A stretch of 64,000 bases of DNA from Candidatus Woesearchaeota archaeon (GCA_014729915.1 WJJD01000058.1:18293-82292), one strand, 5' to 3'. Numbered from the stretch's first letter, positions 30,492 through 54,850 are shown. Numbers and translations: made by a program. Notes: a model not told the origin generated them from the letters alone.

Positions 30492-31433
30492 GTGAAAATG
30501 GGATTTTTAAAAAATATCTGTCTGGACTTGAGTTTCCTTGATATCAGAAGACTCTTGAAAAAAAATAAAGAGTCTGAGGAAAAAACTGAAAATCAACAAA
30601 TAAAAGAACAGGTTTCTCAATCTGATGAACCAAGACAGCCTCCCCGACTACCAAGATCTCTATTTGACAGAAAATCAAATCAGGTTGCACCTCCTGAGAA
30701 AGCACCCTCTACTCTTCCCGAGATATCTTATGATTTTTTCAAGAAACAAGGAAAAAAGAAAAACAAACAATCTCTTAAATCAAAACCAATCCAAAAACAA
30801 ATAACAGAGGAAAAACCATTTGAAAAAATCCCTGTATCAGAGAATACATTTTTCAATAATCTTGTTTCAGATCTTAAAAAAGATTCTCTGGAATACAGGG
30901 ATACAAAAAATGTTATTGTTGATGATCTGTTTTCTTCAATGAAGGAATTTTGGCAAAACAAAAAATATGATAGAGGCAATAAACAAAAATTAAATTTTAT
31001 CAAAAAAGAAGTAGTTGACAGGATGCAGGAGCTTCATGAGCTTGAGGTCGAGTGGCAGAAATCCAAGATCACTCATGAAACTCTGGGAGATAACCTACAT
31101 AAAAAAGAATTGGAAATTGAATCAAAAATAAGAGAACTTAAAAAGATCTTTCAAAAACACCATGCTCATATGGAGGTTAAACAGGAACTTTTTTTTAATG
31201 TAAAAAACGGCATGACAATAAAATCACTTTCAGAACTTAACGACAAGCTCCCTGAAATACCTGATGAAGTATTTTTTTTTCATGTTAATGAAAACAAAAA
31301 TGATTTCTCTACATGGATAAATGATGTTTTTGGTCTCAAAAACCTGGCAAAAGACCTTTCTGGAGCAAAATCAAGAAATGAATTTTCAGAAATTCTTGAA
31401 AAACATGTTTCAGATGAGGATTTTTCCATTTAA
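30492..31433 (+). CDS. Soluble, charged coiled-coil protein ending in the conserved ~70-aa 'HVNE-KNDFS-W' C-terminal domain
   Basis: The C-terminus 'FFNVKNGMTIKSLSELNDKLPEIPDEVFFFHVNENKNDFSTWINDVFGLKNLAKDL' aligns with the C-termini of the products of 45052..47544 and 51965..54850. No TM helix is present. A TATA-like 'ctataaaaaaatatatatac' lies at about 30445-30464. Confidence 0.7.
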   Translation: MKMGFLKNICLDLSFLDIRRLLKKNKESEEKTENQQIKEQVSQSDEPRQPPRLPRSLFDRKSNQVAPPEKAPSTLPEISYDFFKKQGKKKNKQSLKSKPIQKQITEEKPFEKIPVSENTFFNNLVSDLKKDSLEYRDTKNVIVDDLFSSMKEFWQNKKYDRGNKQKLNFIKKEVVDRMQELHELEVEWQKSKITHETLGDNLHKKELEIESKIRELKKIFQKHHAHMEVKQELFFNVKNGMTIKSLSELNDKLPEIPDEVFFFHVNENKNDFSTWINDVFGLKNLAKDLSGAKSRNEFSEILEKHVSDEDFSI

Positions 31434-31585
31434 TAAAAACAATCAATTGATTTTTAAAAATATTTTAAATAATCAAATTTATTTTATTTTTGTTAAATAA
31501 ACTCATTTTGAATTAATTTTCGATTTTTAAAACCAAATAATTCTTATGAAATTTGTGATAAAAGAAAAAATTTAAATATAACTTG

Positions 31586-31672
31586 GTATACAATAATGTA
31601 TACTAAAATAAAAAAAGCAATATCTAGTATACAGAAATAATAAATAGATATTTTTGTATATTAAAATACACT
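31586..31672. promoter_or_regulatory. Cluster of GTATAC-centred inverted repeats in the leader of the 31710-35997 gene string. It is a candidate operator/promoter region.
   Basis: Three sites: GTATACA-ATAA-TGTATAC at 31586..31603, TAGTATACAG at 31625-31634, and TGTAT-ATTAAA-ATACA at 31656-31671. Confidence 0.25.
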
Positions 31673-31709
31673 TTAGCAAGCAGAAAAACATTAAGCAAGC
31701 AAGAGAACA

Positions 31710-31910
31710 ATGGTAACCTTAACAGAGTTTAAAAAGGAGTGGGTAAAACTTGTTTTTAATGAGACCCCGACTAAAGTAGTTGTTAAGCAGGGATACCTCT
31801 ATGATGATGGAGAATTCTATAAAGTGATCGGAGACAGATCAGAAACGCTTGTGCGCAAAGATAAAGTGATCAGTATAACTAAAAAATCTTTTAAAGGTGA
31901 TACAAAATGA
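31710..31910 (+). CDS. Small hypothetical protein (66 aa), translationally coupled to the next gene through an ATGA overlap
   Basis: ORF 'MVTLTEFKKEWVKLVFNETPTKVVVKQGYLYDDGEFYKV...'. Its stop overlaps the start codon of 31907. Confidence 0.4.
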   Translation: MVTLTEFKKEWVKLVFNETPTKVVVKQGYLYDDGEFYKVIGDRSETLVRKDKVISITKKSFKGDTK

Positions 31911-32734
31911 TAAAAAAAGATAGATCAGGAATTAGAAAAATTTTAGCTGTATTTTCAGCATTCATCATACTATCAATATTTGCTTATGCAGCATCAGATG
32001 ATGAGCCAATGCCACTAGAATCTCTCAATGCAACTGAAAACGAAAGGATAAATGTATCTCAGATACCACTTAAATCACATGATGCAGAAGCTGGTAATTT
32101 AACAAAATTGGTCCTATTCGGTAGATCTCAGACAAAGCACTGGCAGGGTTATTACGGAGACATCACAGGTACAATAACATTGGATGATGCTCAGAACTGG
32201 ACATTATATGACTGGGACAATCCTGAGCCCAAAGGAGAGATATATGCAGTAGCAAACACTTCAGGTACAACACCCTCCTGGAGTACAGTCGAATGCTTTA
32301 ATTATACTCAGGAAACAGCAGGAGCAGCATGGGCAAACGGAAACACTACACTTGACAGGTGGGAGACATATTACAACATGACGTGGAATGACGTTGACGG
32401 GATCAATGAGACATTCAATGTGACAACTCATCTTGGATTTTCAGTCGGCTCATATACAATAGATGCTGATTCTTGCCCTGCAACATATACGTATGTAAGT
32501 GATGCATATCAGCAGGACAAATTCAGTGAAATATTGCTCCAGACTGATGAAGCCCAGCTGGTCTTTGCAACAATCATTGAAAACGATGATGAAGCAAATA
32601 ATACAGACCCTACAGGTTTTGATGATGTAGCGCATGACTTCCAGATGCTTGTAGCTGAAGACGGAACGAGTCTTAGTGCAGGTGAGATCAATGAGGATCC
32701 CACAACTTATTATTTTTACATAGATATAGAGTAA
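31907..32734 (+). CDS. Secreted ~250-aa protein, paralog family P1, with a signal peptide and a C-terminus of ...TYYFYIDIE
   Basis: Signal peptide 'MIKKDRSGIRKILAVFSAFIILSIFAYA'. The shared core 'HWQGYYGDITGTITLDDAQNWTLYDWDNPEPKGEIYAV ... STVECFNYT' aligns with the products of 32802 and 36006c. It has many N-x-S/T sequons. Confidence 0.75.
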   Translation: MIKKDRSGIRKILAVFSAFIILSIFAYAASDDEPMPLESLNATENERINVSQIPLKSHDAEAGNLTKLVLFGRSQTKHWQGYYGDITGTITLDDAQNWTLYDWDNPEPKGEIYAVANTSGTTPSWSTVECFNYTQETAGAAWANGNTTLDRWETYYNMTWNDVDGINETFNVTTHLGFSVGSYTIDADSCPATYTYVSDAYQQDKFSEILLQTDEAQLVFATIIENDDEANNTDPTGFDDVAHDFQMLVAEDGTSLSAGEINEDPTTYYFYIDIE

Positions 32735-32801
32735 AAGAAAAAGATTTTTTCTTTTTTTCTATGTAAAAAAGACAGTAAAGCTATAACAGAGATCAACCAA
32801 A

Positions 32802-33560
32802 ATGGAAAAAAAAATAAAACATCGGGATTTTCAGGCAATTCTTCTTGTTTTATTTTTATTGATAATTTATTTTTCAATTGTTATTGCAGCTGAACCTGAA
32901 GGAGGCACAATTGATTTTAAATCAAATTCAACAAAAAATATTACTCCTCCAAGTTCAAGAAATGACACAAAGGGAACAATTACAACTATTGTTATGACAG
33001 CCACACAACAAAACACAAAATGGAAAGCATATGTCGGAAATGTGACAGGAACTCTTGTCTTGAGAGATGCGGCAGATTACAGTATTTATGAATGGACATC
33101 AATCGGAGATCCGACAGGAGAAGTATATATAACAAGGAATGATTCAATAGAATGGTCAAATATCAAGTGTGCAAATTCAACAATTATTGACAGTGAGCAG
33201 GTCTTTTTAAATCATTCACCTACATCCCGGGATAATATCAACAATACTTTTTCAAATCAGGCCCATGATTCATTCTGGGTTGGTGACGTTACCGAAATTC
33301 AAAACAGCACCTGTTGGGGTACAGCAACCTGGATAAATGATTCTTCCCAGACAATTAATGAAGATTCACTGTTCCAGGAGATATTATTGTATGACAATAC
33401 AAATCTTATATATACAACCATAATAGAACAGAATCTCCAGGGATACAGAAATGATTCCGCAACAACTTATGATTTCCAGGCAATACTTCCTGATAATGCA
33501 TTACCCGGAAGCACCGGACAGGTAACATATTATTTTTATGTTGAGATCGAGTCAGGATAA
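32802..33560 (+). CDS. Secreted ~250-aa protein, paralog family P1, ending ...TYYFYVEIESG
   Basis: Signal peptide 'MEKKIKHRDFQAILLVLFLLIIYFSIVIAAEP'. Core 'KWKAYVGNVTGTLVLRDAADYSIYEWTSIGDPTGEVYITRNDSIEWSNIKCANSTII ... NLIYTTIIEQN'. Confidence 0.75.
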   Translation: MEKKIKHRDFQAILLVLFLLIIYFSIVIAAEPEGGTIDFKSNSTKNITPPSSRNDTKGTITTIVMTATQQNTKWKAYVGNVTGTLVLRDAADYSIYEWTSIGDPTGEVYITRNDSIEWSNIKCANSTIIDSEQVFLNHSPTSRDNINNTFSNQAHDSFWVGDVTEIQNSTCWGTATWINDSSQTINEDSLFQEILLYDNTNLIYTTIIEQNLQGYRNDSATTYDFQAILPDNALPGSTGQVTYYFYVEIESG

Positions 33561-33561
33561 A

Positions 33562-34506
33562 ATGAAAAAAAATAAATTCAATAAAAAAACTTTAATGCTT
33601 ACGATAGGTCTGCTTATCTGCTTTATCTTTTTATTCTCCTGGCTTTCCTTATTAAAGATTCCAAAAGCAACAAGTTATCTAGGGGCTGATATAAACCAGA
33701 CACTAAATACAACTGTAAATATTACAAATGCACAGCCAGAAGTAAGAACCGTTGCAATGGATTCTCCTATTGATCTTGAGGCATACGGAAACAGAACAGT
33801 GTACTGCAATACAACTGTTTTTGACTGGGATAATGACACCCTTACTGTAAATGCCAGCTTTTACATTGAGGGCCTTACAGATCCATTTTCCTCTGTAGAC
33901 AATAACAATAAGTATGATAATGTAACCTGCACCAGAACAAGTCCGCAGGACAGGGAAATGAATTATACCTGTACAGTTGACATGACTTATTACACTGACA
34001 ACTCTTCGCAATGGAGATGCAATGTAACAGCAAAGGATGATGATAATGCAACTCACACCAATGTTTCGGATTATGCAGTAATAAATCCCCTGACAGCAAT
34101 CTATGTTCCCGGAGTCCTTGATTTCGGGGAGCTTGCAGTAAACGATATATCTGATGATAAATTGGCAAATATAACAAATGCAGGGAATAGGAATATCAGC
34201 ATTTATGTTGAGGGATGGGGTGCAGAAAAAGGAGACGGGCTTGCTATGAACTGTTCTTATGGTTCAATTGATTCAAGCTATGAAAGATATAATCATACAC
34301 AGTCCGGATTGAGCTGGGAAACTGAATTAAAGGAAGTTACAAATGAATCTGTAAGGATTGATGGTTTTACAGTATTTCACAGGTTTGATGATTCTTCTTC
34401 CTCTGGGTCAACAAATTCAACCTACTGGAAATTAAAGATTCCGGCTTTTGCAGGTGGTATTTGCAATGGAAAAATATTATTCACTGCAGAGGATGACGGA
34501 ACCTGA
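33562..34506 (+). CDS. Secreted/anchored ~315-aa protein, paralog family P2, with a 'LLKIP' motif after the N-terminal hydrophobic segment and a C-terminus of ...GGICNGKILFTAEDDGT. I start it at 33562 rather than the track's 33538.
   Basis: The ATG at 33562 immediately follows the upstream stop at 33558-33560 and yields 'MKKNKFNKKTLMLTIGLLICFIFLFSWLSLLKIP'. The protein aligns over its full length with the product of 54872..55780 and with the C-terminal ~300 aa of the product of 56694..60077: 'NQTLNTTVNITNA.PEV', 'PLTAIY[VI]P', 'NITNAGN', 'YWKL[KE]IP'. Confidence 0.7.
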   Translation: MKKNKFNKKTLMLTIGLLICFIFLFSWLSLLKIPKATSYLGADINQTLNTTVNITNAQPEVRTVAMDSPIDLEAYGNRTVYCNTTVFDWDNDTLTVNASFYIEGLTDPFSSVDNNNKYDNVTCTRTSPQDREMNYTCTVDMTYYTDNSSQWRCNVTAKDDDNATHTNVSDYAVINPLTAIYVPGVLDFGELAVNDISDDKLANITNAGNRNISIYVEGWGAEKGDGLAMNCSYGSIDSSYERYNHTQSGLSWETELKEVTNESVRIDGFTVFHRFDDSSSSGSTNSTYWKLKIPAFAGGICNGKILFTAEDDGT

Positions 34507-34515
34507 TTTTTTGAA

Positions 34516-35997: not shown

Positions 35998-36005
35998 AAA
36001 AATAA

Positions 36006-36731
36006 TCACGCAAGCTCAATCCAGAAAAAATAAGGAGTAGACTGCTCTCCGGGAAGATCCTTTTCAGGTACAATCATCTGGAAATCATAGTTTTTGAAAT
36101 TAAAACCCTGCTCTTCATCATGCAGAAGAGTTGTATATATAAGGTTAGTTTTATCAGTCAAAAGCACTTCCTGGAACAATGCATCTTCTGTTACTGTCTG
36201 CTGAGTATTGTTGACCCAGGTAGCAGTAGATCTGCATGTGCTGTTTTCAATATAAGTTGTGCCAACATAAAATTCCTTGTGTATTTCATATTCAAACGTG
36301 TTGTTTATGCTGTCTTCATTAGAGAAAGTATGATTCATTGCAGTCTCCTCACCAGAGATTATTGTGTGATTTGCACATTCTATGCTGTTCCAGTCCACAG
36401 AATCATTTCTTGAAGCATAGACCTCTCCTGTGACAGTTGTCAATGACCAGTCATAGATAGTATAGTTATCTGCATCATCAAGAGTGAATTTTCCTGAAAT
36501 ATTACCTACATATGCTTTCCATCTGGGATTTTGGGTCTCGCCATAAAGTATGAGGGTTGTAAACGTCCCGCCCGAAGTATTTACAAATGATGCAGGTTCA
36601 GAGTCTTTAGTCTCTGAATTGCTGTACGGAATCATGGCACCTGTAGGCTCAATTGCATAAGAGATTCTGAATAAGATTGCAAAAAAGACCAGGATAAATC
36701 CTAATATCCGGATTAATCTCTTATTTTTCAT
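36006..36731 (-). CDS. Secreted ~240-aa protein, paralog family P1, ending ...PYFFWIELA
   Basis: Signal peptide 'MKNKRLIRILGFILVFFAILFRISYA'. Core 'RWKAYVGNISGKFTLDDADNYTIYDWSLTTVTGEVYASRNDSVDWNSIECANHTII ... NLIYTTLLHDE'. Confidence 0.75.
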   Translation of the reverse strand: MKNKRLIRILGFILVFFAILFRISYAIEPTGAMIPYSNSETKDSEPASFVNTSGGTFTTLILYGETQNPRWKAYVGNISGKFTLDDADNYTIYDWSLTTVTGEVYASRNDSVDWNSIECANHTIISGEETAMNHTFSNEDSINNTFEYEIHKEFYVGTTYIENSTCRSTATWVNNTQQTVTEDALFQEVLLTDKTNLIYTTLLHDEEQGFNFKNYDFQMIVPEKDLPGEQSTPYFFWIELA

Positions 36732-37590: not shown

Positions 37591-39276
37591 ATGAAAAAAA
37601 AAGGTATTGAATCTGTGGAGCAGTGGATGTGGATTATTGCGGGCCTTGCAATAGCAACCCTAATTATTATTGGAGGGTACAGCATTATTTCTCAGTTAGT
37701 TGCAGACAAACAACTTAAAGAAACAATGGATACTTTCAATAATTTAAAAAACAGGATACAGGATCTGTGTTATAGAAATAAAAAATCACAGGAAATTCAC
37801 TACATGAAGATCAGCGACATTGTAAAAGAGATCTCTGTAAGAAACAGCACAACCATGAGGACAGGCAACGGAACAATGCTTTGTATTGAAATTGAAGACA
37901 AGAACCGGGAATGCCAGCAATTAAAAAACTGCGTATATGATCTTGTTCCTATAAGATTCCAAAAACAGCAAAACATATTTTCAACAATCCAGAAAGCGCT
38001 TGGCAGCTCAAGATCTGCAAAAATTGCTGTATTGATAACAAAAGGGACATTTGATAAGGTTTTTGTTACCTGGACAGAAGTGTTTTCAGAAGACCAGATC
38101 GGATCCGAAGTGAACAAAGAGATTTTCTCTAAAACAAAGCAATATGTAATTTCATATGAATACCACAAATTAATCAATGATATAAAAGAGATAATACAGG
38201 AAGTTTCAGAAATTAAGACAAGTTCAGTGAATAAAAACCTCGATTTTCCTACAGAAGTTGAAAAAATGTATTTTTTTAACCTTTCTGAAGAACTTAAAGA
38301 GCTTGACTATAAGGAAAATCTTAATCTTCATGAAAAAATAAAATCATATGATGAATCCAATTTATTTTTTATACAGGAAAGGGGAGCACTTAAATCCTAC
38401 CGGATTGAAGGATTGGATCTGCAGGAGCCGAATTATCTGTGCGTCAAAAATATCGACGGGAGGATGAGGCTTAATTTTGAGAGCACGGGAAATGGAGTAA
38501 ATATATTAACCCGGGATTCAGACTCAGACTGCACTTATCCTGTGATTGCAAGAGAAGTTGCAACTTATCTTGAAAAAGAGTCCTCAGAAGAATTTGAACA
38601 GGAGATGGAGTCATTAAAAGAATCAATAGAAAATGATTTTCCCGAAGTTTCAATTGATTATGAGCTGGATTATGATCCTGTTGAAGATAAGACCAAAGCA
38701 AGTATCAAATTCTCATCCTCACTGGATGCTGAGAATTTCAGATTAATTCATTTTATCCCGAAGTGTATGCTTCAGCTGGCTGATGAATTGTCTTTTAGTT
38801 ATGAAGGAAAGCAGCCGGAGGAGATAGAGATATTGAGGGAGGATCCATTGATAATGTGGCACTTTAATGAAATTGATCTTGAAAAAACTTCTATAAATTA
38901 TGAAAAGAGCGGCAAGGTGGATGAATTCTGCGAGGAACTTCTCACTAATTTTTTAGTATCTGTTAGGAGAAGGGATGGCTTTTTCGGAAAGCATAAAAAA
39001 CCAGGCATTTACAAATTCGATGATTCAGATTTTGATGAGGAAAAAAATTATGAAGATTTATATCCTGATGATTTGGACAATGATGGATTTCCGGATGAAT
39101 GGGAGGATATGTATGGGTATAACAAAAGGAATAAGAATGATCCCGGAGAATCTTCTGATCATGATAGTGACGGCGCAGATTCAAGAGCAGAATACAATCA
39201 TAACATGGATCCGAAAAATCCCGATACTGACGGAGATGGTATACTGGATGGAGCAGAGATTCAGGAAGAAGAATAG
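37591..39276 (+). CDS. Type IV pilin-like (class III signal peptide) protein of 561 aa with C-terminal thrombospondin type-3-like Ca-binding repeats
   Basis: N-terminus 'MKKKGIESVEQWMWIIAGLAIATLIIIGGY': basic residues, then Gly, then Glu at +5, then a 20-aa hydrophobic stretch. C-terminal D-x-D-x-D-G motifs: 'DDLDNDGFPDEWED ... DHDSDGADSRAEYNHNMDPKNPDTDGDGILDGAEIQ'. Confidence 0.5.
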   Translation: MKKKGIESVEQWMWIIAGLAIATLIIIGGYSIISQLVADKQLKETMDTFNNLKNRIQDLCYRNKKSQEIHYMKISDIVKEISVRNSTTMRTGNGTMLCIEIEDKNRECQQLKNCVYDLVPIRFQKQQNIFSTIQKALGSSRSAKIAVLITKGTFDKVFVTWTEVFSEDQIGSEVNKEIFSKTKQYVISYEYHKLINDIKEIIQEVSEIKTSSVNKNLDFPTEVEKMYFFNLSEELKELDYKENLNLHEKIKSYDESNLFFIQERGALKSYRIEGLDLQEPNYLCVKNIDGRMRLNFESTGNGVNILTRDSDSDCTYPVIAREVATYLEKESSEEFEQEMESLKESIENDFPEVSIDYELDYDPVEDKTKASIKFSSSLDAENFRLIHFIPKCMLQLADELSFSYEGKQPEEIEILREDPLIMWHFNEIDLEKTSINYEKSGKVDEFCEELLTNFLVSVRRRDGFFGKHKKPGIYKFDDSDFDEEKNYEDLYPDDLDNDGFPDEWEDMYGYNKRNKNDPGESSDHDSDGADSRAEYNHNMDPKNPDTDGDGILDGAEIQEEE

Positions 39277-39336: not shown

Positions 39337-39840
39337 ATGATATATGACAGGAATCAGTTTGTTTTTAATATTGTCCTTTCTCTATTGCTGATTATCATGA
39401 TACTTGTATGCGGATTTTTTGGATACAAATTCATACAAATCAAAAACCAGATGGAAGATATCAATACCAATCTTGAAGAGATTGAAAAAAACCAGCATTA
39501 TACAAATTATATACAGGCAAGTCATCAGGACATAAGATTTCAGTTGTCTCCTGAAGGATTTTTTATATATGGAGCTGATGATTACGGGACTTTGCAGGGA
39601 CCATCAATGCAGCCGTCCATCTTTGACAGCCATACTCTCATCCAGGTAAAATATACTGATCAGAATCTCTCAGAAGGCCAGATTGTAAGATACTATGACT
39701 CTGAAAGGACTCCTGTAATCCACAGGATAAGGGGAGTATACAATAACACAGTGAAAGTCCAGGGAGACAACCTGGACCAGGATGAGATTATTGAAAAGAA
39801 CCAGATAACTCATCTCATTCTCGGAGTACTTTTTACATAA
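39337..39840 (+). CDS. Signal peptidase I, S26 family, archaeal/eukaryal Sec11-type (Ser/His)
   Basis: N-terminal TM anchor 'FVFNIVLSLLLIIMILVCGFFGY'. Box B is 'GPSMQP' (Ser nucleophile). Box C-like is 'GQIVRY'. Box D is 'VIHRI' (His general base). Box E is 'GDNLDQDE'. Confidence 0.7.
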   Translation: MIYDRNQFVFNIVLSLLLIIMILVCGFFGYKFIQIKNQMEDINTNLEEIEKNQHYTNYIQASHQDIRFQLSPEGFFIYGADDYGTLQGPSMQPSIFDSHTLIQVKYTDQNLSEGQIVRYYDSERTPVIHRIRGVYNNTVKVQGDNLDQDEIIEKNQITHLILGVLFT

Positions 39841-39841
39841 A

Positions 39842-45051: not shown

Positions 45052-47544
45052 ATGAAAAAATACATCTTAATATTAATTGCAATCATATTTTTGCAGATGA
45101 ATGTTTCAGCACAAATTCCGGCATACAGGGACCTTCCATTTCTTTCAACAGAATTTTACGGTACTGCAACAGTTTATGATCTTAACAGTACAGCCTTTGA
45201 AGCCGGCACAAGAATAGATGCCTATGCATATGAAACATTATGCGGTACATTTTATATAGAAAATGAAGGCTATTACGGATCATTGACCTGCAGAGCAGAC
45301 GATAATAACACTAATGAGACAGAGGGTGCACTACAGGGCCAGAATATAATATTCAGGATAGATAATCAGACAACTCTTAGCTCAGGAGATACAGTCTGGT
45401 ACCAGGGGGAATTCCAGAGGGTTGATCTTGCATTGGCTCCCGGTTGCCCGAACGGGTGGTGTGAAATAGGAGAGAGCTGCGTTAATTGTCCGGAGGACTG
45501 CGGGGTATGCCCCCCTCCGGGAGCAGGCCAAGGAGGAGAAGGAGGAGACGGGGAAGGAGGTGATTCAGGAGATTCAGATAACAGTGATGAAGAGGATGGA
45601 GGTGCCGGCGAGGATGAAGGAGATTCTGCAGCAGGTGCCGGTTCAGGTGATATCAGTTTCAGAGAAGGAAGAGATACAATGCAGAATCTTTCCATGGAAT
45701 TATGCAAAGAAGACTGGTTCTGCACTGCCTGGATTCCTGACCCCTGCCCTATTTCAGGAGAGCAGACAAGAAACTGCACAGATATCAACAATTGCAATAC
45801 AACTTTTACAAAACCAGAAGAAAAACAGAACTGCACATATGAAGGGACATGTTTTGATTATATATTAAACCAGGATGAGACAGATATTGACTGCGGGGGA
45901 AAAATTTGTGAGGGATGTGAGAATGATAAAAGATGCAAAAAAGACAGAGACTGCGTTTCGGGATTCTGCAATCCTTTTGAAGAGGTCTGCAGAACCCCTG
46001 TCTGTGATGACGGTATAAAAAACCAGGGGGAGCAGGAAATTGACTGCGGGGGTCCCTGTCCACCATGTCATCCTGAAGAGATGCCGATTCTTGAACAACC
46101 CGGAAGAATCATCCGATTTGTCGTGGCAGGATGCGGACCGTTCCCCTGGGGCATATTGATGATATCTTCAGTTGGCATATTATTATGTTATGTTCTTGGT
46201 AAAGTCTATATAAAAAGATATCAAAATAAAAGGAAATTTACCAGGCTGGATAGACTTGATAAGCTGAATAAAAAATACAGGATGGAGCGTTATCTAAACT
46301 TGTTTATTATAAATGGGATACTTGTTATGTTGTCTATTTGTTTATACTTATATTATTTCTGCGAGATCGTGGTATGGATATTTATCATGGTGATGCTTAT
46401 AATTCCTTTAATTACAGGCTTTACAATAAAGCTGCTTGTCTATGATGAAAAACGAAAACAGGAAAGATTCAGGAGACTGATAATATCGCATGAAGAAGAG
46501 TTAAGTAAAATTATCAGGTTAAAGAATACCCAGATAAATGAAATTGAAAAAGATATAATAAACAGATTAGAAAAAATAATTTTTTCAGGTTCGTTAAAAC
46601 CTGCGATGAGAGATCATCTGTCAAGGCTCCTCAAACTTATCAAAACCCACAATAAGATGGATATTTCAGATCCTGATCTTGAAAAAAATATGATAGACAA
46701 AATTGATGAGATAAAAGACAAAAATAACTCCAAAAACAAAATACTCTCACAGGCAATGGATTCTCTTAATCTGTTGAAAAAAATTTTTAATGATAAGGCC
46801 GGTCAGGAAAAGGAATTGGGAAAAGACGAGAAAATTGAAAAAAACATTGAAGAGGGAAGCCAAAATAAAGAAAATAAAGAAATGGATAATCTAAAAAAAA
46901 ACAAAACACATAATTCGGACTATTTTGATGATATTGACGAAAAAGCAGATAAACAGATACTAAAACTCGAAAAAAAACAGATGGAAAAGCAGCTAGAGCG
47001 GGAAGTGGAAAAAAGGCATACAAAAGAACTTCAAACAAAGAAAAAATATGATTATTCAAAAAAAGCAGAAAATCCATTTAAGATAATAAACACACGAATA
47101 GCAAATACAATAAATGAGCTGATAACAGACATAAAAAACATGAACGAATCAGATTATTATTTTCACAATAATGAGCTCAGGAATGACTTTTCAGAATGGA
47201 TAAGCGGAGAATTCGGGTATGGTGCACTGGCTGAAAAAATTAATCATATCAAGGCAAGACAGGATCTTCTTAAAATTCTGGAATCTTCTGGAAAGTATGT
47301 AAAAGACAAAAAAACTGGCAAAAAACTATTCAGGCTCAATAGCGGTAAAACAATAGAGACTATAGATGAATTAAAAAATGAGTTAGGGAAAATGGATGAT
47401 CAGGAATTTTATTTGTATGTGAATGAATTAAGAAATGAATTTTATTATTGGATTAAAAATAAATTGGAAAAAGATAAACTTGCTGAAAAACTAAGATATG
47501 TGAAAACAAAGAAGGAAATGATTGAAATCTTAAAAACATACTAA
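45052..47544 (+). CDS. Membrane protein with a signal peptide, a Gly/Asp/Glu-rich acidic low-complexity region, Cys-rich 'IDCGGPC' repeats, TM helices, and a Lys/Glu coiled-coil cytoplasmic tail carrying two copies of the 'HVNE-KNDFS-W'-type domain
   Basis: Signal peptide 'MKKYILILIAIIFLQMNVSA'. Acidic region 'PPPGAGQGGEGGDGEGGDSGDSDNSDEEDGGAGEDEGDSAAGAGSGD'. Cys-rich 'CFDYILNQDETDIDCGGKICEGC ... CDDGIKNQGEQEIDCGGPCPPC' and 'C.DW.C ... NNC' resembling the 24349 protein. TM segments at 'GILMISSVGILLCYVLG' and 'GILVMLSICLYLYYFCEIVVWIFIMVMLIIPLITGF'. Tail copies 'YYFHNNELRNDFSEWISGEFGYGALAEKINHIKARQDLLKIL' and 'FYLYVNELRNEFYYWIKNKLEKDKLAEKLRYVKTKKEMIEIL'. Confidence 0.75.
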   Translation: MKKYILILIAIIFLQMNVSAQIPAYRDLPFLSTEFYGTATVYDLNSTAFEAGTRIDAYAYETLCGTFYIENEGYYGSLTCRADDNNTNETEGALQGQNIIFRIDNQTTLSSGDTVWYQGEFQRVDLALAPGCPNGWCEIGESCVNCPEDCGVCPPPGAGQGGEGGDGEGGDSGDSDNSDEEDGGAGEDEGDSAAGAGSGDISFREGRDTMQNLSMELCKEDWFCTAWIPDPCPISGEQTRNCTDINNCNTTFTKPEEKQNCTYEGTCFDYILNQDETDIDCGGKICEGCENDKRCKKDRDCVSGFCNPFEEVCRTPVCDDGIKNQGEQEIDCGGPCPPCHPEEMPILEQPGRIIRFVVAGCGPFPWGILMISSVGILLCYVLGKVYIKRYQNKRKFTRLDRLDKLNKKYRMERYLNLFIINGILVMLSICLYLYYFCEIVVWIFIMVMLIIPLITGFTIKLLVYDEKRKQERFRRLIISHEEELSKIIRLKNTQINEIEKDIINRLEKIIFSGSLKPAMRDHLSRLLKLIKTHNKMDISDPDLEKNMIDKIDEIKDKNNSKNKILSQAMDSLNLLKKIFNDKAGQEKELGKDEKIEKNIEEGSQNKENKEMDNLKKNKTHNSDYFDDIDEKADKQILKLEKKQMEKQLEREVEKRHTKELQTKKKYDYSKKAENPFKIINTRIANTINELITDIKNMNESDYYFHNNELRNDFSEWISGEFGYGALAEKINHIKARQDLLKILESSGKYVKDKKTGKKLFRLNSGKTIETIDELKNELGKMDDQEFYLYVNELRNEFYYWIKNKLEKDKLAEKLRYVKTKKEMIEILKTY

Positions 47545-48250: not shown

Positions 48251-48269
48251 CCTCTATATTACTTGAAAT

Positions 48270-49253
48270 ATGAAACTCGCATTTGCGACCGGTCCTTATG
48301 CCCAGTCAGAGGATTCTTTATACATCTTTCTAAAAGAAGCTTTAAGCCGAAACCACAAGGTTTATCTCTTTATTTTGGATGATATTTATACAAAAGACAA
48401 TCATATTTTTGCTGACCTGATGCTGCTTTCGAAAAAAAGATTCGGCATAGACAATAATCAAAGATATAAATTTGATAAAAAAGTTCCCATGCAGCTGGGG
48501 TCAATGAACGCAGTTTTTTTAAAAAGAGATCCGCCTGTTCCTGCAGATAAACTTGAAATGATAAAAGATCTCGGCAAAAAAGTTTTTGTTGTAAATGATC
48601 CCGCAGGCATAATAAAATATAAAAGCAAGTCTTCTCTTGAAAGATTTTCAGAATTCATGCCTGAGACCTTCTTTTCAAAAGATGTCTCATTTCTTAAACA
48701 AAAAATCAATGAATTAAAAGATTGTGTACTAAAACAGGACTTCAGCTATGGTGGTCTTGGTATCCATCGTATATATGAGAAGAACAATCAATATTTTCAT
48801 AATCATCTGAAGATAAAAAATCAAAAAATACAGCTGACTCCTTTTCTTAAAAAACTGACATTAGACGGGACAAAAAAATTGACACTTGTCCGTTTCCTCA
48901 AAAATATAGACCAGGGAGATAAACGGATAATAATTCTTGACGGAAAAATTCTTGGTGCTATACTAAGAAAACCCTCAAAGGACTCATGGATATGTAATAT
49001 CACTTCAGGAGGGGTTGCGGGAAAAACAACAATTACAGAGGATGAACAAGAAATGATTAAAAAAATATCTCCTGTCCTTACGCAGGACGGAATACATATT
49101 GCAGGATTTGACACTCTGGTGGATGACAGCGGTAAAAGAGTATTATCAGAAATAAACACAACCAATGTTGGAGCGTTTCATATCCTGAACAAAACTTATA
49201 ATTTAAAACTAGAAAAGAAAATTATTGATTGGTTAGAACACGAATCTTTTTAA
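48270..49253 (+). CDS. Glutathione synthetase-like ATP-grasp ligase (GshB/RimK family)
   Basis: Alignable to E. coli GshB: 'FLKRDPPVPADKLEMIKDL' versus 'LMRKDPPFDTEF'. 'DGDKRIIILDGKILGAILRKPSKDSWICNITSGGVAGKTTITEDEQEMIKKISPVLTQDGIHIAGFDTLVDDSGKRVLSEINTTNVGAF' versus '[82 protein letters not shown]'. Confidence 0.7.
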   Translation: MKLAFATGPYAQSEDSLYIFLKEALSRNHKVYLFILDDIYTKDNHIFADLMLLSKKRFGIDNNQRYKFDKKVPMQLGSMNAVFLKRDPPVPADKLEMIKDLGKKVFVVNDPAGIIKYKSKSSLERFSEFMPETFFSKDVSFLKQKINELKDCVLKQDFSYGGLGIHRIYEKNNQYFHNHLKIKNQKIQLTPFLKKLTLDGTKKLTLVRFLKNIDQGDKRIIILDGKILGAILRKPSKDSWICNITSGGVAGKTTITEDEQEMIKKISPVLTQDGIHIAGFDTLVDDSGKRVLSEINTTNVGAFHILNKTYNLKLEKKIIDWLEHESF

Positions 49254-49461: not shown

Positions 49462-50211
49462 ATGTGCAGAATGGTTATCGGGATCGGAAATATAGACACA
49501 AAAAAATTAATTGATGATTTCAGGTATATTGCTCAGGGAAAAAATGAGCTGCATGAAAAAAATCCATATTACGGAAAACTAATGCATGATCATGGCTGGG
49601 GTCTTGCCTACCTGAACAAAAAAAATAAATGGGTCATATATAAGTCAGTCAACCCGATATATGAGGATAAAAACCTAAAGGAATTTACAGATATCGACAC
49701 ACAGGCCTTGATAATACATGCAAGAAAAGCGACTGCGGGAAACAAGACTATACCTAATACTCAGCCTCTGTTTTTCAAAAATCAGGATCAGGAATTTTTA
49801 TTCGCCCATAACGGAACAATCAACGATCAGTTTGATATTAAAACTAAATATCTTGAATATGGAGATTCAGACACAGTAATGTGGTTCAATAAGATTCTTC
49901 TGGATGTCAACAAGGAAAATGAAGTCAGGATTGAAAAACATTTGTATTCATTAAAAAACTTCACTTCAGCAAATTTCTTTTTTGTAACTCCTGAAAAAAT
50001 CTTTGTAGGGCAGTATTACAGAAAGGATCCAAAATATCATACAATGAAATTATTTAAGGAAAATTACGGATTAATAATATCTTCAGAAATACTTCCACAT
50101 CTTAAAAGTAAAAACTGGAGTGAGATTCCCAACAGGAGCATTTTTGAGATTGATTATAAAAAAAAAAGGGCAATGGTTAAAAAACGGATTTCTCAGACAT
50201 CTTCCGTGTGA
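49462..50211 (+). CDS. Class II (Ntn-type) glutamine amidotransferase-like protein, YafJ/EgtC-like
   Basis: It starts 'MCR...', with Cys2 as the Ntn nucleophile as in YafJ/EgtC. 'HDHGWGLAY' matches the 'DGWGIA' core. The length of about 250 aa is typical. Confidence 0.6.
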   Translation: MCRMVIGIGNIDTKKLIDDFRYIAQGKNELHEKNPYYGKLMHDHGWGLAYLNKKNKWVIYKSVNPIYEDKNLKEFTDIDTQALIIHARKATAGNKTIPNTQPLFFKNQDQEFLFAHNGTINDQFDIKTKYLEYGDSDTVMWFNKILLDVNKENEVRIEKHLYSLKNFTSANFFFVTPEKIFVGQYYRKDPKYHTMKLFKENYGLIISSEILPHLKSKNWSEIPNRSIFEIDYKKKRAMVKKRISQTSSV

Positions 50212-51520
50212 TCAAGAGATTCTTGAATAGTTTATCAGAAAGTTTTATAGATAATTCCTCAGCTGTTTCCTGTGTAATTCTTTTATAATTAGTATATCCC
50301 TGTTTTTTCTTGACATAATCAAGAATCTCATCAGAGGTTGTTTTTCTTTTTTCAAGTATCTCCTTAAATTCCTGTAAAATTAATTTGTTATTATCAATTA
50401 CGTTCTTATCAAGAAAATCAACAAGGGATCCGCAATACTCTCTTATCTTCATGCTGTCAAGACCTTTAACTGCGGATTTTTTCTGGAGAACATTCCTGAG
50501 ATAATCTGCCTGGGGAACATAGAGCTTATCTGATTCTAATTTGAATGGATTTTTATTCCCGATTTTATCAGGAATTATCTTTATTTTGTTTTTATTAATA
50601 TATCTTATGAAATTTTTCAATATCCCGCACAACCCTGCAACCTTTTTAACGGAATTCATATCACATCCCCTGCTTTCGATTGTGCCGTGAGCAGTAACTT
50701 TTACAGGTTTCCATGAAGAATCAAGGATTGAAGTTCCGTATTTTGTGAATTTATTAAAAGAAACATCATGCTCATTTAACAATTTTTTCCATTCCGTACT
50801 TCTTTTCCGGATAGAATTTTTAAGTTCATTAAATTCCAGAGAATACTTATTTAATGTCCCGAAATCAGGTTGCCTTGCATAAAGCGAGTTCTCATATTCG
50901 AAAAACTCCTCTCCCCTGTATGCAATTATCCTGGAATCCTTGCCGAGATAGTTCCCCTGATAATACGGGGATGACTGCATAAAAGTTGTTATTGCTGGAT
51001 CAAGTGCAATAAAAAGATTATTTACATTAAGGACTTTATGCTTATCCCTCTCTTTTATATCAGGGTAGAAGAATTTTATATTCCTGTTAAATGTTCTTCT
51101 TGGAAGCGAATAATGATAGTGAAAACCGATGCATCTTCCGGCTGTCTTCCAGTTCTCTTTTCCAAGAATTTTTTCTTTTGCATAGTACCTGGGTTCTTCC
51201 CTCATTTCAGGGGAATTTTTTCCGGGATATGAGCCGTAGTAAAACAGGCTTAAGTCCTGTTTATCAATATCATATATCAGATTTTCAAAATCATCAAAAA
51301 AATTGCTGAATACGTGTCTTGAGGAAAGATGCGGGAATGTTGCAATCTCTAACATATTTTTTCCGCATTCTTTCTTTAATTCAGTGTTTGTCAGATTTTT
51401 TTTAAATTCTTCAAGAACTGAATCTGCTTTATTAACAATCCTGCCTTCATTATCAATAAGAAAGAATTCAAGTTCGATCCCGAATGTCCTATGGCTCGGT
51501 GGATAACTGATAGGAGTCAT
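50177..51520 (-). CDS. GCS2/YbdK-family carboxylate-amine ligase (glutamate-cysteine ligase-like amidoligase)
   Basis: N-terminal 'RTFGIELEFFLIDNEGRIV' matches YbdK/GCS2 'FTLGIEEELQLVD'. 447 aa. Convergent with, and overlapping, the 3' end of the amidotransferase gene. Confidence 0.65.
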   Translation of the reverse strand: MTPISYPPSHRTFGIELEFFLIDNEGRIVNKADSVLEEFKKNLTNTELKKECGKNMLEIATFPHLSSRHVFSNFFDDFENLIYDIDKQDLSLFYYGSYPGKNSPEMREEPRYYAKEKILGKENWKTAGRCIGFHYHYSLPRRTFNRNIKFFYPDIKERDKHKVLNVNNLFIALDPAITTFMQSSPYYQGNYLGKDSRIIAYRGEEFFEYENSLYARQPDFGTLNKYSLEFNELKNSIRKRSTEWKKLLNEHDVSFNKFTKYGTSILDSSWKPVKVTAHGTIESRGCDMNSVKKVAGLCGILKNFIRYINKNKIKIIPDKIGNKNPFKLESDKLYVPQADYLRNVLQKKSAVKGLDSMKIREYCGSLVDFLDKNVIDNNKLILQEFKEILEKRKTTSDEILDYVKKKQGYTNYKRITQETAEELSIKLSDKLFKNLLITRKMSEKSVF

Positions 51521-51803: not shown

Positions 51804-51968
51804 ATGAGCAAGGTAAAACGGGTAAACATCGAGTTAAAAGAAGACACCCATATGAAGGCAAAGGTAATTGCTGTTCTAAAGGATATAACCCTCAATGAAT
51901 TTTTTGAATCAGCTATTGAGAAATATATAGATGAAAACAAGGGTGTCTTAGAAAAGATAAAAGAATGA
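51804..51968 (+). CDS. Small (54 aa) ribbon-helix-helix/CopG-like protein, translationally coupled (ATGA) to the downstream surface protein gene. It is not in the ORF track because it is under 60 aa.
   Basis: 'MSKVKRVNIELKEDTHMKAKVIAVLKDITLNEFFESAIEKYIDENKGVLEKIKE' has a strand-helix-helix pattern. Its stop at 51966-51968 overlaps the ATG at 51965. Confidence 0.4.
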   Translation: MSKVKRVNIELKEDTHMKAKVIAVLKDITLNEFFESAIEKYIDENKGVLEKIKE

Positions 51969-54850
51969 GGAAAAATTTTTTTTTAACCGGAATTGTAATG
52001 TTTTTTCTTATTCCTGTTGCTCACTCTCTCGGATCAATTTCAACCTCAGACCTGACTCCTCGAAATGTTGATCTATGCGGAGAAAATTCCCAATATGTGA
52101 CAATCTCAGCACAGGAAATCTTAAACCTAGAAAATGAGACATTGACATCAGTAAAAGCATCTCTTTACCTGAATGAAGATGCAGGATTGAGTTATGTAAC
52201 TCCGCAGACAGTTGAACTCGGAGATATTTATGCAGACAATTACAGTTCAGTTTCTCCTTCATGGGTTTTGCAGTGTCTCTCACCAAACCAGGGAATATAC
52301 ACTGCATTCATCAACTATACATCAGCAAACAGCTATTTTGCAAGCTCAATTGATCAGGCAAACACAGTGATAACAGTATACGCACAGGATGATATAAACG
52401 GAAACATAACAATAATAGAAAAAGACTCTGAACCTAAACAACCAAGCACGGATATAATCTCAGATAATACACCAACGGTTGTTGCCAGTACAGACAGGGA
52501 TTCAATATGCAGGGGAGCAGTTGATGCTGATAAATCATATGATATCATGGATTTTGTTTTCTATGGTACAGAAAGAGATCATAATTACACTTTTACAAAT
52601 ATTATCTCAGAAGGAAAACATACAATCTATGTAAAATGCAAAGATCTTTTTGGAAAAGTGATGGAAAATTCCATGGAAATATCCTTCCAAGTTGATTCGT
52701 CAGATCCTGAAATTATTATTGAGAGCCCGTTGACAATCTCAAAAGATTATATTAATTTTCATATAACAGTAAGTGAAGAATCAGAATGCAGGTATTCCTT
52801 TTCAGAAGAATCATTTAATAGTAAGATAGGGTTTGATAACCGGGAAAAAATCTCATTTTCAAGTTTGTTAGAGGATCTTAAAAAAGGGGAAAACCCTATC
52901 TATGTTGAGTGCAGGGACATTGTCGGAAATACTGGTAAAAAAAATATAATTGTCTCGGTAGAAAGACCTCCTAGCTGTGAAATAATATTAAGTGATGAAT
53001 CTCCTGTAAAACAGGGAATATTGGAAGTAAAGCTGATTCCCTCAAAAAAATTAAGAGAAATACCTGACTTAAGCTATAGTTATACAGACACTGAAAAATT
53101 CACAAGAGAAATCTCTCTGACAGAGCACTCAGGATATTATAAGGGATTTTTGATAATAGACAACTACGAGACACCGAAAATCGGGGTTTTTGAGTTTTCA
53201 GGATATGATCTCTCGGGAAATAAAGGAACAGAAATAACAAACGGAGCAGATTTTATTGTTGACACTATAAAACCCGGAGGGATTGAAAGCATAAATTCAG
53301 GTACAGATCCTGAAAATAATATTGTATTGAAATGGTTTTATGAAGGAGAAGGAACCCAGAATTTCAATATTTACAGGTCAACAACTCCCGGAGTTACTTA
53401 TATTGATTATTATGATAAGGCAAATATCCAGGAATATACTGATGAGAATCTTAAGTCAGGCACAGAATATTATTACAGGGTTTGTGCAGTTGACAAAGCA
53501 GGAAACATAGGAGAATTATCCAAAGAAGTTTCAGCAGTAGCCCAAACAGGTTTGTCAGATGAAAAAATTCATCAGGAAGATCCGCCAAGACTATCTACAT
53601 TACAGGAATTTAATAAAACACTTAGAGAAATAGAAAGCCTGAAGATAGATATTGACTGGGCAGAGGCAAATCTTGCAGAACAAAAATCACAGGAACCTGC
53701 AGTAACAGATCTTGGCTTATATAAGAATGTAATGGGTTCACAGGAAAAAATAAAACAACTGAAAAATAAATTTGAAAAAACAAATCCATTATCAAATTCA
53801 GATCAAGAACTAAAAGAACTGATTGCAAATACAGAAAAACAGCTTGAAAACCTAAGAAAACAGACACCAGCAAAACTTGAGATAATTAAAAAAACAGAAT
53901 ATATGCAGCCTGTAGCAAAATCAGATATTGATCAGGCAGTAAGGGAAGTTACAAAGGGTCTTAATTTTACAGAAAAACAACTCAAAGAGTATAGAGAAAA
54001 AAATTATGATATACGGGAGAAGATCAGGATCTCTTCACTTGTAAAGACATTATCCATAGAATATCTTGATGAATCCGGGGATTACAGAGTATGGGTTAAT
54101 AAAAATGTCCATTATGAAGATCCTGAACCAGTTTCGGACATAAAACTAGTTGAGATAATTCCAAAGACACTCGCAGGAAACCTCGGTACAGTAAATGTCA
54201 GGACAGCTGATCATGTAATAATAAATGAGGATCCGGTCATTGCCTGGAATATTGATGAGCTGAGCTATGAGAAATTCAATATAAAATATATTGTAATAAC
54301 TCAGGACACATCTGAATCAGCAAAAAACACAAAGACAATCGGCCTATTAAAATTTGATGACATGTTAATGCAATCACCCAGTTTAATCACAGGTTTTTCA
54401 ACTACACTCACAAGGATATCACCATTCAACATCATCCAGACAATAGGAGTCTTTATAGGAATAATGCTTGTAATCAGCCTGTTTATGTATTATCTTGCAG
54501 CAATCAAAGAGATAGATATAGGAGGCAGATACCTGGACAGGATAAAAAATTTCAGAAAAGAACAAAGACAGCAAATAAAACCTGTCTCAATGAGAAATTA
54601 TTCTTTATTGACATCACCTGAACAATATTTCTATCTTGCAAACGGAGATGTCATAAGAAGCTTAGGAGAGTTTTTTAATATGCTTGAAGAGATGGGTGAT
54701 TCAATATTTTATACTCATGTAAATGAACACAAAAATGATTTTTCAAATTGGCTAAGATCAGTATTTAGATTAGATGATGTAGCAGAAAAGATTCAATACA
54801 GCAAATCAAAAAAAGAGATGATAAAGATCTTAGAACAGTACAAAAGATAA
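51965..54850 (+). CDS. Type I membrane surface protein of 961 aa: a signal peptide, Ig-like domains and a fibronectin type III domain, an extracellular coiled-coil, one TM helix, and the cytoplasmic 'HVNE-KNDFS-W' C-terminal domain
   Basis: Signal peptide 'MRKNFFLTGIVMFFLIPVAHS'. FN3 'NIVLKWFYEGEGTQNFNIYRSTTPGVTYIDYYD ... SGTEYYYRVCAVDKAGNIGELS'. TM 'IIQTIGVFIGIMLVISLFMYYLAAI'. C-terminus 'YFYLANGDVIRSLGEFFNMLEEMGDSIFYTHVNEHKNDFSNWLRSVFRLDDVAEKIQYSKSKKEMIKILEQYKR'. Confidence 0.8.
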   Translation: MRKNFFLTGIVMFFLIPVAHSLGSISTSDLTPRNVDLCGENSQYVTISAQEILNLENETLTSVKASLYLNEDAGLSYVTPQTVELGDIYADNYSSVSPSWVLQCLSPNQGIYTAFINYTSANSYFASSIDQANTVITVYAQDDINGNITIIEKDSEPKQPSTDIISDNTPTVVASTDRDSICRGAVDADKSYDIMDFVFYGTERDHNYTFTNIISEGKHTIYVKCKDLFGKVMENSMEISFQVDSSDPEIIIESPLTISKDYINFHITVSEESECRYSFSEESFNSKIGFDNREKISFSSLLEDLKKGENPIYVECRDIVGNTGKKNIIVSVERPPSCEIILSDESPVKQGILEVKLIPSKKLREIPDLSYSYTDTEKFTREISLTEHSGYYKGFLIIDNYETPKIGVFEFSGYDLSGNKGTEITNGADFIVDTIKPGGIESINSGTDPENNIVLKWFYEGEGTQNFNIYRSTTPGVTYIDYYDKANIQEYTDENLKSGTEYYYRVCAVDKAGNIGELSKEVSAVAQTGLSDEKIHQEDPPRLSTLQEFNKTLREIESLKIDIDWAEANLAEQKSQEPAVTDLGLYKNVMGSQEKIKQLKNKFEKTNPLSNSDQELKELIANTEKQLENLRKQTPAKLEIIKKTEYMQPVAKSDIDQAVREVTKGLNFTEKQLKEYREKNYDIREKIRISSLVKTLSIEYLDESGDYRVWVNKNVHYEDPEPVSDIKLVEIIPKTLAGNLGTVNVRTADHVIINEDPVIAWNIDELSYEKFNIKYIVITQDTSESAKNTKTIGLLKFDDMLMQSPSLITGFSTTLTRISPFNIIQTIGVFIGIMLVISLFMYYLAAIKEIDIGGRYLDRIKNFRKEQRQQIKPVSMRNYSLLTSPEQYFYLANGDVIRSLGEFFNMLEEMGDSIFYTHVNEHKNDFSNWLRSVFRLDDVAEKIQYSKSKKEMIKILEQYKR

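Follow-up and report, generated by a model that had tools for sequence, protein, structure and literature searches.

We analysed a window of 64,000 nucleotides (the whole stretch of DNA, from Candidatus Woesearchaeota archaeon GCA_014729915.1, WJJD01000058.1:18293-82292) in which three open reading frames (ORFs) encode proteins that end in copies of one block of about 75 amino acids. The products are called p30492, p45052 and p51965 after the start coordinates of their ORFs, and the block, judged from profile matches, is a single repeat unit of the OrfY-like domain (DUF5752, Pfam PF19027). The features concerned are given below, with TM for transmembrane, HMM for hidden Markov model, Ig for immunoglobulin and pLDDT for predicted local distance difference test.

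30492..31433, plus strand: p30492, 313 aa, soluble, with one OrfY-like unit
31188-31430 (aa 233-313), plus strand: OrfY-like (DUF5752) unit of p30492, from PF19027 (E 1.7e-5) and BLASTP
45052..47544, plus strand: p45052, 830 aa, Cys-rich membrane protein with two tandem units
46138..46446, plus strand: predicted membrane-spanning part of p45052, with TM1 (aa 363-385) and a hairpin formed by TM2 and TM3 (aa 413-465), from hydropathy and flanking charge
47068-47307 (aa 673-752), plus strand: unit 1 of p45052, from alignment, HMM and BLASTP, with high local pLDDT in the AlphaFold2 tandem model
47320-47541 (aa 757-830), plus strand: unit 2 of p45052, from alignment, HMM, BLASTP and the AlphaFold2 tandem model
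51965..54850, plus strand: p51965, 961 aa, with an Ig-like ectodomain, one TM segment and one unit
54428..54502 (aa 822-846), plus strand: predicted TM segment of p51965, from hydropathy, followed by 5 Lys or Arg within 15 residues
54620-54847 (aa 886-961), plus strand: OrfY-like unit of p51965, the sequence used for the structure model

Three window proteins and their shared C-terminal block

A preliminary description of this DNA had reported a C-terminal block with invariant positions in the products of these ORFs, with two copies in that of 45052..47544. All three ORFs were present as described and contained the peptides quoted from them. Whole-protein BLASTP among the three gave E values of 1e-16 for p30492 against p51965, 2e-14 and 8e-12 for p45052 against p51965, and 5e-11 and 3e-10 for p30492 against p45052. 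The block was the sole shared region, and an alignment of its four copies (one in p30492, two in p45052, one in p51965) contained 11 invariant columns; by these measures of sequence similarity, the resemblance is far beyond chance. The count of three membrane proteins and one soluble protein had to be corrected. An HMM built from the four copies found no fifth in the six-frame translation of the window (next best E > 1), so the block is carried by two membrane proteins and one soluble protein, and a third unit-bearing membrane protein was rejected.

Topology was read from hydropathy and flanking Lys/Arg counts, together with the positions of Cys residues and N-x-S/T sequons. p30492 has no TM segment, no sequon and one Cys; it starts with a basic, amphipathic N-terminus whose hydrophobic moment peaks at 0.65-0.69 around aa 14-28, continues with a linker rich in Pro, Gln and Glu and a helical Lys/Glu-rich region (aa 120-232), and ends in the unit. 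After its signal-like N-terminus, p45052 has a Cys-rich ectodomain spanning aa 26-360 and three predicted TM segments; a Lys/Glu-rich linker of 207 aa (aa 466-672; 20% Lys, 12% Glu) then leads from the membrane to the tandem units. Each of its hydrophobic stretches (aa 363-385 and 413-465) is followed by six Lys or Arg within 15 residues, and as the second is 53 residues long, it was taken to be a hairpin of two TM segments. Of the 30 Cys in p45052, 26 lie at aa 64-339 and all but two (aa 430 and 437, in the second hydrophobic stretch) lie before aa 362, as do 9 of the 12 sequons. p51965 consists of a signal-like N-terminus, an ectodomain of ~790 aa and one TM segment, which a linker of 39 aa separates from its single unit; the ectodomain holds a Big_13 Ig-like domain, a weak fn3-like match and a helical, coiled-coil-like region (aa 536-690). 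All eight Cys and seven of the eight sequons of p51965 precede its TM segment.

The Lys/Arg-rich flank after the last TM segment of p45052 and p51965 places the C-terminus inside, across the membrane from most of the Cys residues and sequons. Relatives agree with this placement: their units share a soluble segment with HerA/FtsK-type ATPases (unit after) or KaiC-type ATPases (unit before), with no TM segment between, or occupy the N-terminus of tail-anchored proteins that have no signal peptide. The predicted cytoplasmic location of the unit, proposed in the preliminary description, is thus well supported by hydropathy, charge counts and the architectures of relatives. That the two ectodomains differ was also borne out. 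Two further points held for one protein each: p51965 is single-pass, but p45052 has three predicted TM segments; a cytoplasmic Lys/Glu-rich stretch precedes the units of p45052, but in p51965 there is only the 39-residue gap, with the region at aa 536-690 lying outside.

Identity, fold and conservation of the unit

The block had been called unrecognised, which it is not: it matches PF19027 and has the OrfY fold of PDB entry 4CSO. Against the Pfam gathering cut-off of 23 bits (whole-protein score), p45052 (33.5 bits, E 3.4e-8) and p30492 (24.8 bits, E 1.7e-5) lie at or above the threshold and p51965 (18.2 bits, E 1.7e-3) below it, so the DUF5752 membership of p51965 rests on its signature and fold. 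The matches cover profile positions ~16-80 or ~118-190 of 208, that is, one or the other half of the model, which is therefore itself a two-unit tandem. A profile of seven units found 4CSO in PDB (E 7.4e-8) and matched OrfY twice (aa 17-91 and 128-194), each time with the motif NDFxxW (TNDFARW and RNDFSRW). The evolutionary unit is the module of ~75 aa, not Pfam's 208-aa tandem. A match to a known, widespread domain with an annotated function had been named as a result that would speak against the preliminary description; the domain proved both known and widespread, but DUF5752 carries no annotated function. A literature search found nothing useful on DUF5752, nor on OrfY of Thermoproteus tenax or 4CSO, and the only mention found of an 'OrfY-like superfamily' was that of Kaur et al. 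2018 (PMC5906684).

The unit folds as a beta-hairpin and five helices within ~75 aa. AlphaFold2 modelled the p51965 unit with a pLDDT of 92.6, in keeping with one autonomous folded module, and the model shares the fold of the solved member 4CSO (beta-hairpin and helical bundle). For the two units of p45052, the tandem model reached a predicted template modelling score of 0.55, with no confident packing of unit 1 on unit 2; only one unit superposes on 4CSO, and the two-unit arrangement of OrfY was not reproduced. A fixed tandem packing (cis pairing) of the p45052 units was accordingly left without structural support. A viral origin was also considered, and BFVD held no structural match with E < 3.

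All four window units bear the signature F-x-L-x-N/D-G ... F-x-x-H-V-N-x-x-K/R-N-D-F-x-x-W-I ... L-A, unit 2 of p45052 in the variant form Y-V-N..R-N-E-F..W (Tyr at H33, NEF for NDF). Over 362 units, conserved positions of the signature include W44 (99%), N39 (96%), Phe (93%), H33 (92%), D40 (90%) and K/R38 (89%), with N35 at 70%. The conserved positions are mostly hydrophobic and follow helical i/i+3/i+4 spacing (F4, L18, L22, F30, V34, F41, W44, I45, L54, A55); there is only one conserved polar cluster, at the junction of helix 2 and helix 3 (H33, N35, K/R38, N39, D40).

This cluster is what an enzymatic reading would draw on. Kaur et al. 2018 (PMC5906684) suggested in passing that the domain is a small enzyme, in which case catalysis or metal binding would fall to the conserved His, Asn and Asp, and H33, N39 and D40 are indeed close in sequence. 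However, at 75 residues, and with a single polar patch unaccompanied by a further conserved acidic or basic cluster, the unit would be a small enzyme, H33 or D40 is lost in some units (both are replaced in unit 2 of p45052), and the tandems, receptor tails and tail-anchored proteins of the family look adaptor-like. We regard an enzymatic role as highly improbable.

Relatives of the unit and a possible docking role

For the family census, a profile was run exhaustively against 1.84 billion cluster representatives (50% identity clusters), and a genome scan, which used one genome per species and a single peptide pattern, yielded 80 loci; word-indexed homolog searches gave just 3, 10 and 0 matches. 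The profile search returned 4,888 clusters at E <= 1e-3 and 3,197 at E <= 1e-10. Nearly all of the 80 loci come from metagenome-assembled genomes (MAGs) of Woesearchaeota or Nanoarchaeota, with two from Altiarchaeota and a few from Candidate Phyla Radiation or Chloroflexi bins; many bear the record label 'uncultured Methanosarcinales' MAG, which was taken as given.

Architectures were read from the best 150 of the 4,888 representatives and from 137 unit-bearing ORFs of the 80 loci. Six kinds were seen: (a) soluble proteins of ~400 aa that start with an amphipathic basic N-terminus ('MVKKLISGLLKKK', MinD-like) and continue with the motif VPDELPPL, a helical region and a C-terminal pair of units; (b) one-unit proteins of 85-145 aa whose N-terminal tail is basic; (c) proteins of 130-280 aa that begin with the unit and are tail-anchored by a C-terminal TM segment; (d) proteins of ~1300 aa in which a CarboxypepD_reg ectodomain lies between two TM segments, with a HerA/FtsK-type ATPase and then one or two units after the second; (e) KaiC-type ATPases preceded by two or three units; and (f) a P-loop kinase-like domain with units. 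Tight tandems with linkers of 3-16 residues are common, and the unit is cytoplasmic and membrane-proximal in every architecture seen. p30492 is a one-unit member of the first kind, a family ('MVKKLISGLLKKK..VPDELPPLAED') that normally has two C-terminal units: it is 37% identical to the two-unit protein P0006 over aa 120-303 (E 7.5e-29), and the family representative P0047 is p30492 itself from the third residue on. A Pfam scan of 104 family proteins found fusions to ATPases, coiled coils and membrane anchors, and none to a catalytic domain of a glycoside hydrolase (GH) or glycosyltransferase (GT).

Gene neighbourhoods were compared across the 80 loci by calling ORFs, marking unit genes by HMM and clustering the remaining genes. 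Two unit genes lie directly side by side in 46 loci; of the 53 pairs so formed, 49 are co-directional, and the median gap is 6 bp. The commonest pair, a soluble basic-tail protein and a tail-anchored protein, lies inside a glycogen operon of the order c4 > GT4/5 glycogen-synthase-like > GH57 > small soluble unit protein > tail-anchored unit protein > Glycogen_syn (GT3) > GalT-like > GDE_C, where c4 is a 146-aa protein with a weak match to a winged helix-turn-helix (E 0.002). The small soluble unit proteins of this operon have N-terminal tails of median length 30 aa and net charge +7. GH57 genes occurred in 46 of the loci, GT4/5 in 40, GT3 in 24, GDE_C in 13 and GalT in 9, and a unit gene directly follows GH57 in 39. 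The operon is conserved in related DPANN loci (L005-L080, e.g. L048 and L054), and its Glycogen_syn (GT3) is of the eukaryote type. Two tail-anchored members (L048, L054) have the motif CPYKTIHCG just before the TM segment.

In three loci (L017, L018, L077) a soluble unit protein (218-272 aa) stands in for the tail-anchored member; the gene that directly follows encodes a ParA/MinD ATPase and overlaps the unit gene in L017 (4 bp) and L077 (14 bp). Given this replacement of the anchor by a ParA/MinD-linked protein, the second member of the pair seems to supply localisation. More broadly, a unit gene (174-272 aa) followed by a ParA/MinD-type ATPase gene was observed in six loci (L017, L018, L031, L044, L073, L077), three of them inside the glycogen operon.

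The operon context could mean that the unit is a ligand-sensing or regulatory module of alpha-glucan or trehalose metabolism, binding a sugar, sugar nucleotide or glucan through its polar patch and passing carbon-store status to the membrane proteins and KaiC-type or HerA-type ATPases to which it is fused. The conserved association with GH57, GT4/5, GT3 and GDE_C genes, the conservation of H33, N39, D40 and W44 (90-99%) and the fusion to KaiC-type ATPases, which resembles an input domain, are all in its favour. In T. tenax, the founding member orfY is reported to neighbour treT, the gene of the unidirectional trehalose synthase, a glycosyltransferase (Kouril et al. 2008, Arch Microbiol 190:355). 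On the other hand, the recurrent GH or GT fusion of a carbohydrate-binding module was found in 0 of the 104 scanned family proteins, and most conserved positions, W44 included, appear from helical periodicity to lie on hydrophobic helix faces. Small all-helical carbohydrate binders are unusual. The annotated part of the window contains no glycogen gene, and sensing leaves the anchored or ParA-linked second gene of the pair unexplained. On balance, we consider a sensing role rather unlikely.

In 11 loci a second neighbourhood pattern was seen: a 'PKD/Big' surface protein precedes a HerA/FtsK membrane ATPase that ends in one or two units. In 10 of the 11 the next gene encodes a soluble protein of 224-347 aa whose unit is N-terminal, usually followed by a 362-aa protein. 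The HMM search found no unit in the PKD/Big proteins of these loci. The ectodomain of p51965 is homologous to this type of protein (30% identity over 695 aligned positions to L004_6), so the unit moves between components of one system, being on the surface protein in the window and on the HerA ATPase in the 11 other loci. The ~1300-aa CarboxypepD_reg/TM/HerA-FtsK-type (DUF87)/DUF5752 proteins were observed in L001, L002, L008, L009, L013, L019, L020, L059, L071 and L079; together with the flanking PKD/Big and soluble DUF5752 proteins they may form a DPANN translocation machine.

The unit could be the nucleic-acid-binding module of a transcription factor or a DNA anchor, tethering DNA to membrane proteins or serving DNA-translocating ATPases in the manner of FtsK gamma. 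HerA/FtsK-type ATPases carry it at their C-terminus, RecA-fold KaiC-type ATPases are also fusion partners, ParA/MinD genes follow some unit genes, small soluble members have the basic tails described above, 4CSO carries the molecule name 'OrfY protein, transcription factor', and Kaur et al. 2018 (PMC5906684) describe a bathyarchaeal fusion of an OrfY-like domain, Cren7 and a GIY-YIG nuclease. The unit, however, is acidic: its net charge averages -2.1 across the 362 units and -3.6 across their first 58 columns (-4, -3, +3 and -3 for the window units), which argues against DNA binding by the unit itself. The basic tails are the more plausible binders and are absent from the window proteins, and the glycogen operon has a winged-helix-turn-helix-like gene of its own in first place, c4, albeit by a weak match. 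We judge nucleic-acid binding to be very unlikely. A DNA-binding accessory domain with a basic surface, a helix-turn-helix (HTH) or a winged helix was likewise disfavoured, as the unit is acidic.

Our preferred reading is that the unit is a cytoplasmic protein-docking module that tethers partners at the membrane. We draw it from the comparative evidence and hold it tentatively, as possible but somewhat short of probable. At the inner membrane face, the unit of a membrane-anchored protein would recruit a second unit-bearing protein by unit-unit pairing or, alternatively, a shared partner that binds the conserved helix 2-helix 3 patch; docking of this kind would hold soluble scaffolds or enzymes at particular membrane proteins. 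Two surface proteins of the window, p45052 with its Cys-rich and p51965 with its Ig-like ectodomain, would thereby be coupled to the inner membrane face, and p30492 (peripheral, helical, Lys/Glu-rich and probably coiled-coil) would be the candidate scaffold bridging their tails, since it combines an amphipathic N-terminus, a helical Lys/Glu-rich region and one unit. We favour docking because the unit is membrane-proximal throughout, because tandems and operonic pairs of one anchored and one soluble protein are prevalent, because a ParA/MinD gene can replace the anchor, because the unit hops between components of one system and because it is not fused to catalytic GH or GT domains in the 104 proteins scanned. 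The common docking or clustering module of the preliminary description therefore fits the genomic data, with their adjacent co-directional unit genes, and the unrelated ectodomains, although the domain is not a new one.

Several observations weigh against docking. The strongest neighbourhood signal is that of the alpha-glucan enzymes, which could point to a metabolic or ligand-sensing role instead, and the polar cluster H33/N35/K38/N39/D40 could be a ligand site or mere helix capping. The three unit genes of the window are not adjacent to one another. The units of soluble and anchored partners do not form two sequence classes, unlike what a dedicated heterodimer would lead one to expect: when two classes ('partner A' and 'partner B') were tried, mean identity was 0.28-0.39 between classes and 0.35-0.53 within them, values so close that there is no clean split, and the window units fell in no class. 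The locus sample, gathered with one peptide pattern, represents close relatives only.

If docking is taken further, the OrfY-like unit might serve DPANN archaea (Woesearchaeota, Nanoarchaeota) as an all-purpose homotypic adaptor, comparable in prokaryotes to death-fold or TIR-type modules, that would wire surface adhesins or receptors, membrane HerA/FtsK translocases, KaiC-type ATPases, ParA/MinD positioning ATPases and the glycogen machinery into assemblies near the membrane. The window would then be one node, with p30492 as scaffold and p45052 and p51965 as clients. This extension we regard as doubtful.

Surface-protein clusters of the window and comparison with known systems

The genes around the three unit genes were compared with those of other genomes. 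The neighbours that bear on this comparison are:

89..24238, plus strand: giant ORF, 8049 aa, putative surface protein, a homolog of the giant protein that precedes P0006 in L081-L085
31907..34506, plus strand: three secreted proteins (275, 252 and 322 aa), 39%, 44% and 34% identical to L081 genes in the same order
44093..44362, plus strand: IclR-type HTH protein, 89 aa (HTH_IclR, E 1.4e-5), whose stop overlaps the start of 44359..45048
44359..45048, plus strand: 229-aa secreted protein (p44359) immediately before 45052, sharing 54% identity with L003_3
54872..55780, plus strand: 302-aa secreted protein immediately downstream of p51965, 50% identical to its paralog 33538..34506

In a conserved cluster, p30492 stands in the same place as P0006, its relative with two units, which we count for docking. 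In five contigs (L081-L085) the order is giant protein > 523 aa > P0006 > 258/270 aa > 276 aa > 332 aa > ... > HTH > 243 aa; the syntenic order in the window is 89..24238 > 24235..26493 > 26498..29650 > 29743..30303(-) > 30492 > 31907 > 32802 > 33538 ... 36006(-), 36721(-) HTH, with protein identities of 30-46% across the cluster. From this synteny, a protein of the 30492 type is a conserved member of a surface-protein gene cluster. The product of 89..24238 is presumably a giant DPANN surface protein. It is internally repetitive, its C-terminal ~370 aa recurring at the end of 26498..29650 (1050 aa) and other segments in 56694..60077; the homologous giant proteins before the P0006 gene in L081-L085 are partial, up to 6753 aa or more.

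For the other two unit genes, the closest comparison is Woesearchaeota MAG GCA_016935095.1 (JAFGRO01), to whose contig L003 window positions 40673-42294 are 70% identical; by this measure the source of the window is a relative of that organism. The ortholog of p45052 there (P0146/L003_4) is 44% identical and has one unit only, so unit 2 of p45052 is probably a recent, lineage-specific addition. The 229-aa gene and 45052 form a conserved pair, as L003_3 precedes the 45052 ortholog, and the HTH protein of 44093..44362 could be a dedicated regulator of this pair. The ortholog of p51965 (P0076, 970 aa, 52% identity) keeps its unit, and the gene order GATase_4 > GCS2 (-) > P0076 > 278-aa gene is also kept, with the 278-aa gene in the place that 54872..55780 holds after p51965. 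As far as synteny can tell, all three unit proteins of the window are embedded in conserved surface-protein clusters, and in the window the unit sits on components that are without it in other genomes.

Further genes were observed beside these. Upstream of p51965 lie an ATP-grasp, glutathione-synthetase-like ORF (48270..49253), a class-II glutamine amidotransferase-like ORF (49462..50211) and a GCS2 glutamate-cysteine-ligase-like ORF (50177..51520, minus strand); of these, the amidotransferase-like and GCS2 ORFs are also found immediately before the p51965 ortholog in GCA_016935095.1. Two paralogous families were seen among the secreted proteins, both rich in N-x-S/T sequons, free of Pfam matches and conserved beside unit genes in other DPANN contigs (L081, L043, L076). 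Family A (31907..32734, 32802..33560 and 36006..36731 on the minus strand) ends in '..YYFY.xIE', and the mature part of family B (33538..34506, 54872..55780 and the C-terminus of 56694..60077) starts with 'NQTLNTTVNITNA.PEV'. A 116-aa ORF (42562..42912, plus strand) between the two blocks syntenic with L003 has an IS200-like Y1 transposase domain (Y1_Tnp, E 1.6e-12). N-termini resembling archaeal class III (type IV pilin-like) signal peptides occur in 43466..43960 (minus strand) and 37591..39276 (plus strand) ('MNDKRGVSTFLGAIILVLVVV', 'KKGIESVEQWMWIIAGLAIATLII'), and 39337..39840 is a signal-peptidase-like S26/S24 ORF with a weak Pfam match (E 1e-3).

Among known systems, OrfY of T. tenax (4CSO) is the nearest: it shares the N-D-F-x-x-W signature with the window units, PF19027 reaches two of the three window proteins above its cut-off, and OrfY, too, is a cytoplasmic protein without known function. 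The arrangements differ. OrfY and the 208-position PF19027 model are two-unit tandems in a free-standing soluble protein, whereas in the window single units occur on a surface-protein tail (p51965) and at the end of a scaffold (p30492), and the tandem, tight and flexible, is on p45052. OrfY belongs to a crenarchaeon and the window to a DPANN (Woesearchaeota-like) archaeon, and the scanned and annotated ORFs of the window include no glycosyltransferase or GH57 gene, in contrast to the loci of many relatives (GH57 in 46 and GT4/5 in 40 of the 80).

The unit pairs of DPANN glycogen operons are 32-50% identical to the window units and likewise cytoplasmic and membrane-proximal; they are small, dedicated proteins (85-280 aa), whereas the window has large surface proteins and a scaffold in surface-protein clusters. 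The HerA/FtsK-type membrane ATPases with CarboxypepD_reg domains (P0038 and P0013 types) have the unit at the cytoplasmic C-terminus as well, opposite an Ig-like or regulatory-like ectodomain, and their neighbouring PKD/Big surface protein is the homolog of the p51965 ectodomain. In the window, by contrast, the unit proteins have no ATPase domain and the unit is on the surface protein itself. An analogy of logic only may be drawn with eukaryotic death-fold adaptors, small helical cytoplasmic modules that occur on receptor tails and in soluble adaptors and are often duplicated. The OrfY-like unit has no fold relation to them and its homotypic binding is hypothetical; by the same analogy, it could build membrane-proximal assemblies as death-fold adaptors do.

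What is new here are the DUF5752 members with unusual architectures; the family itself was known, its function undescribed. DUF5752/OrfY is a large family with a crystal structure and no described function, whose unit travels as adjacent gene pairs and has been grafted onto surface-protein tails in host-dependent DPANN archaea. The idea of docking is plausible, now on comparative evidence. If true, it would offer a handle on the link between large DPANN surface proteins and the cytoplasm and would bear on the organisation of glycogen metabolism in DPANN cells. The immediate value is a concrete pair of hypotheses for an orphan domain, unit-unit pairing and sugar binding. Were unit-unit pairing to hold, the cell-envelope and glycogen systems of DPANN archaea would have a widespread adaptor in this unit.

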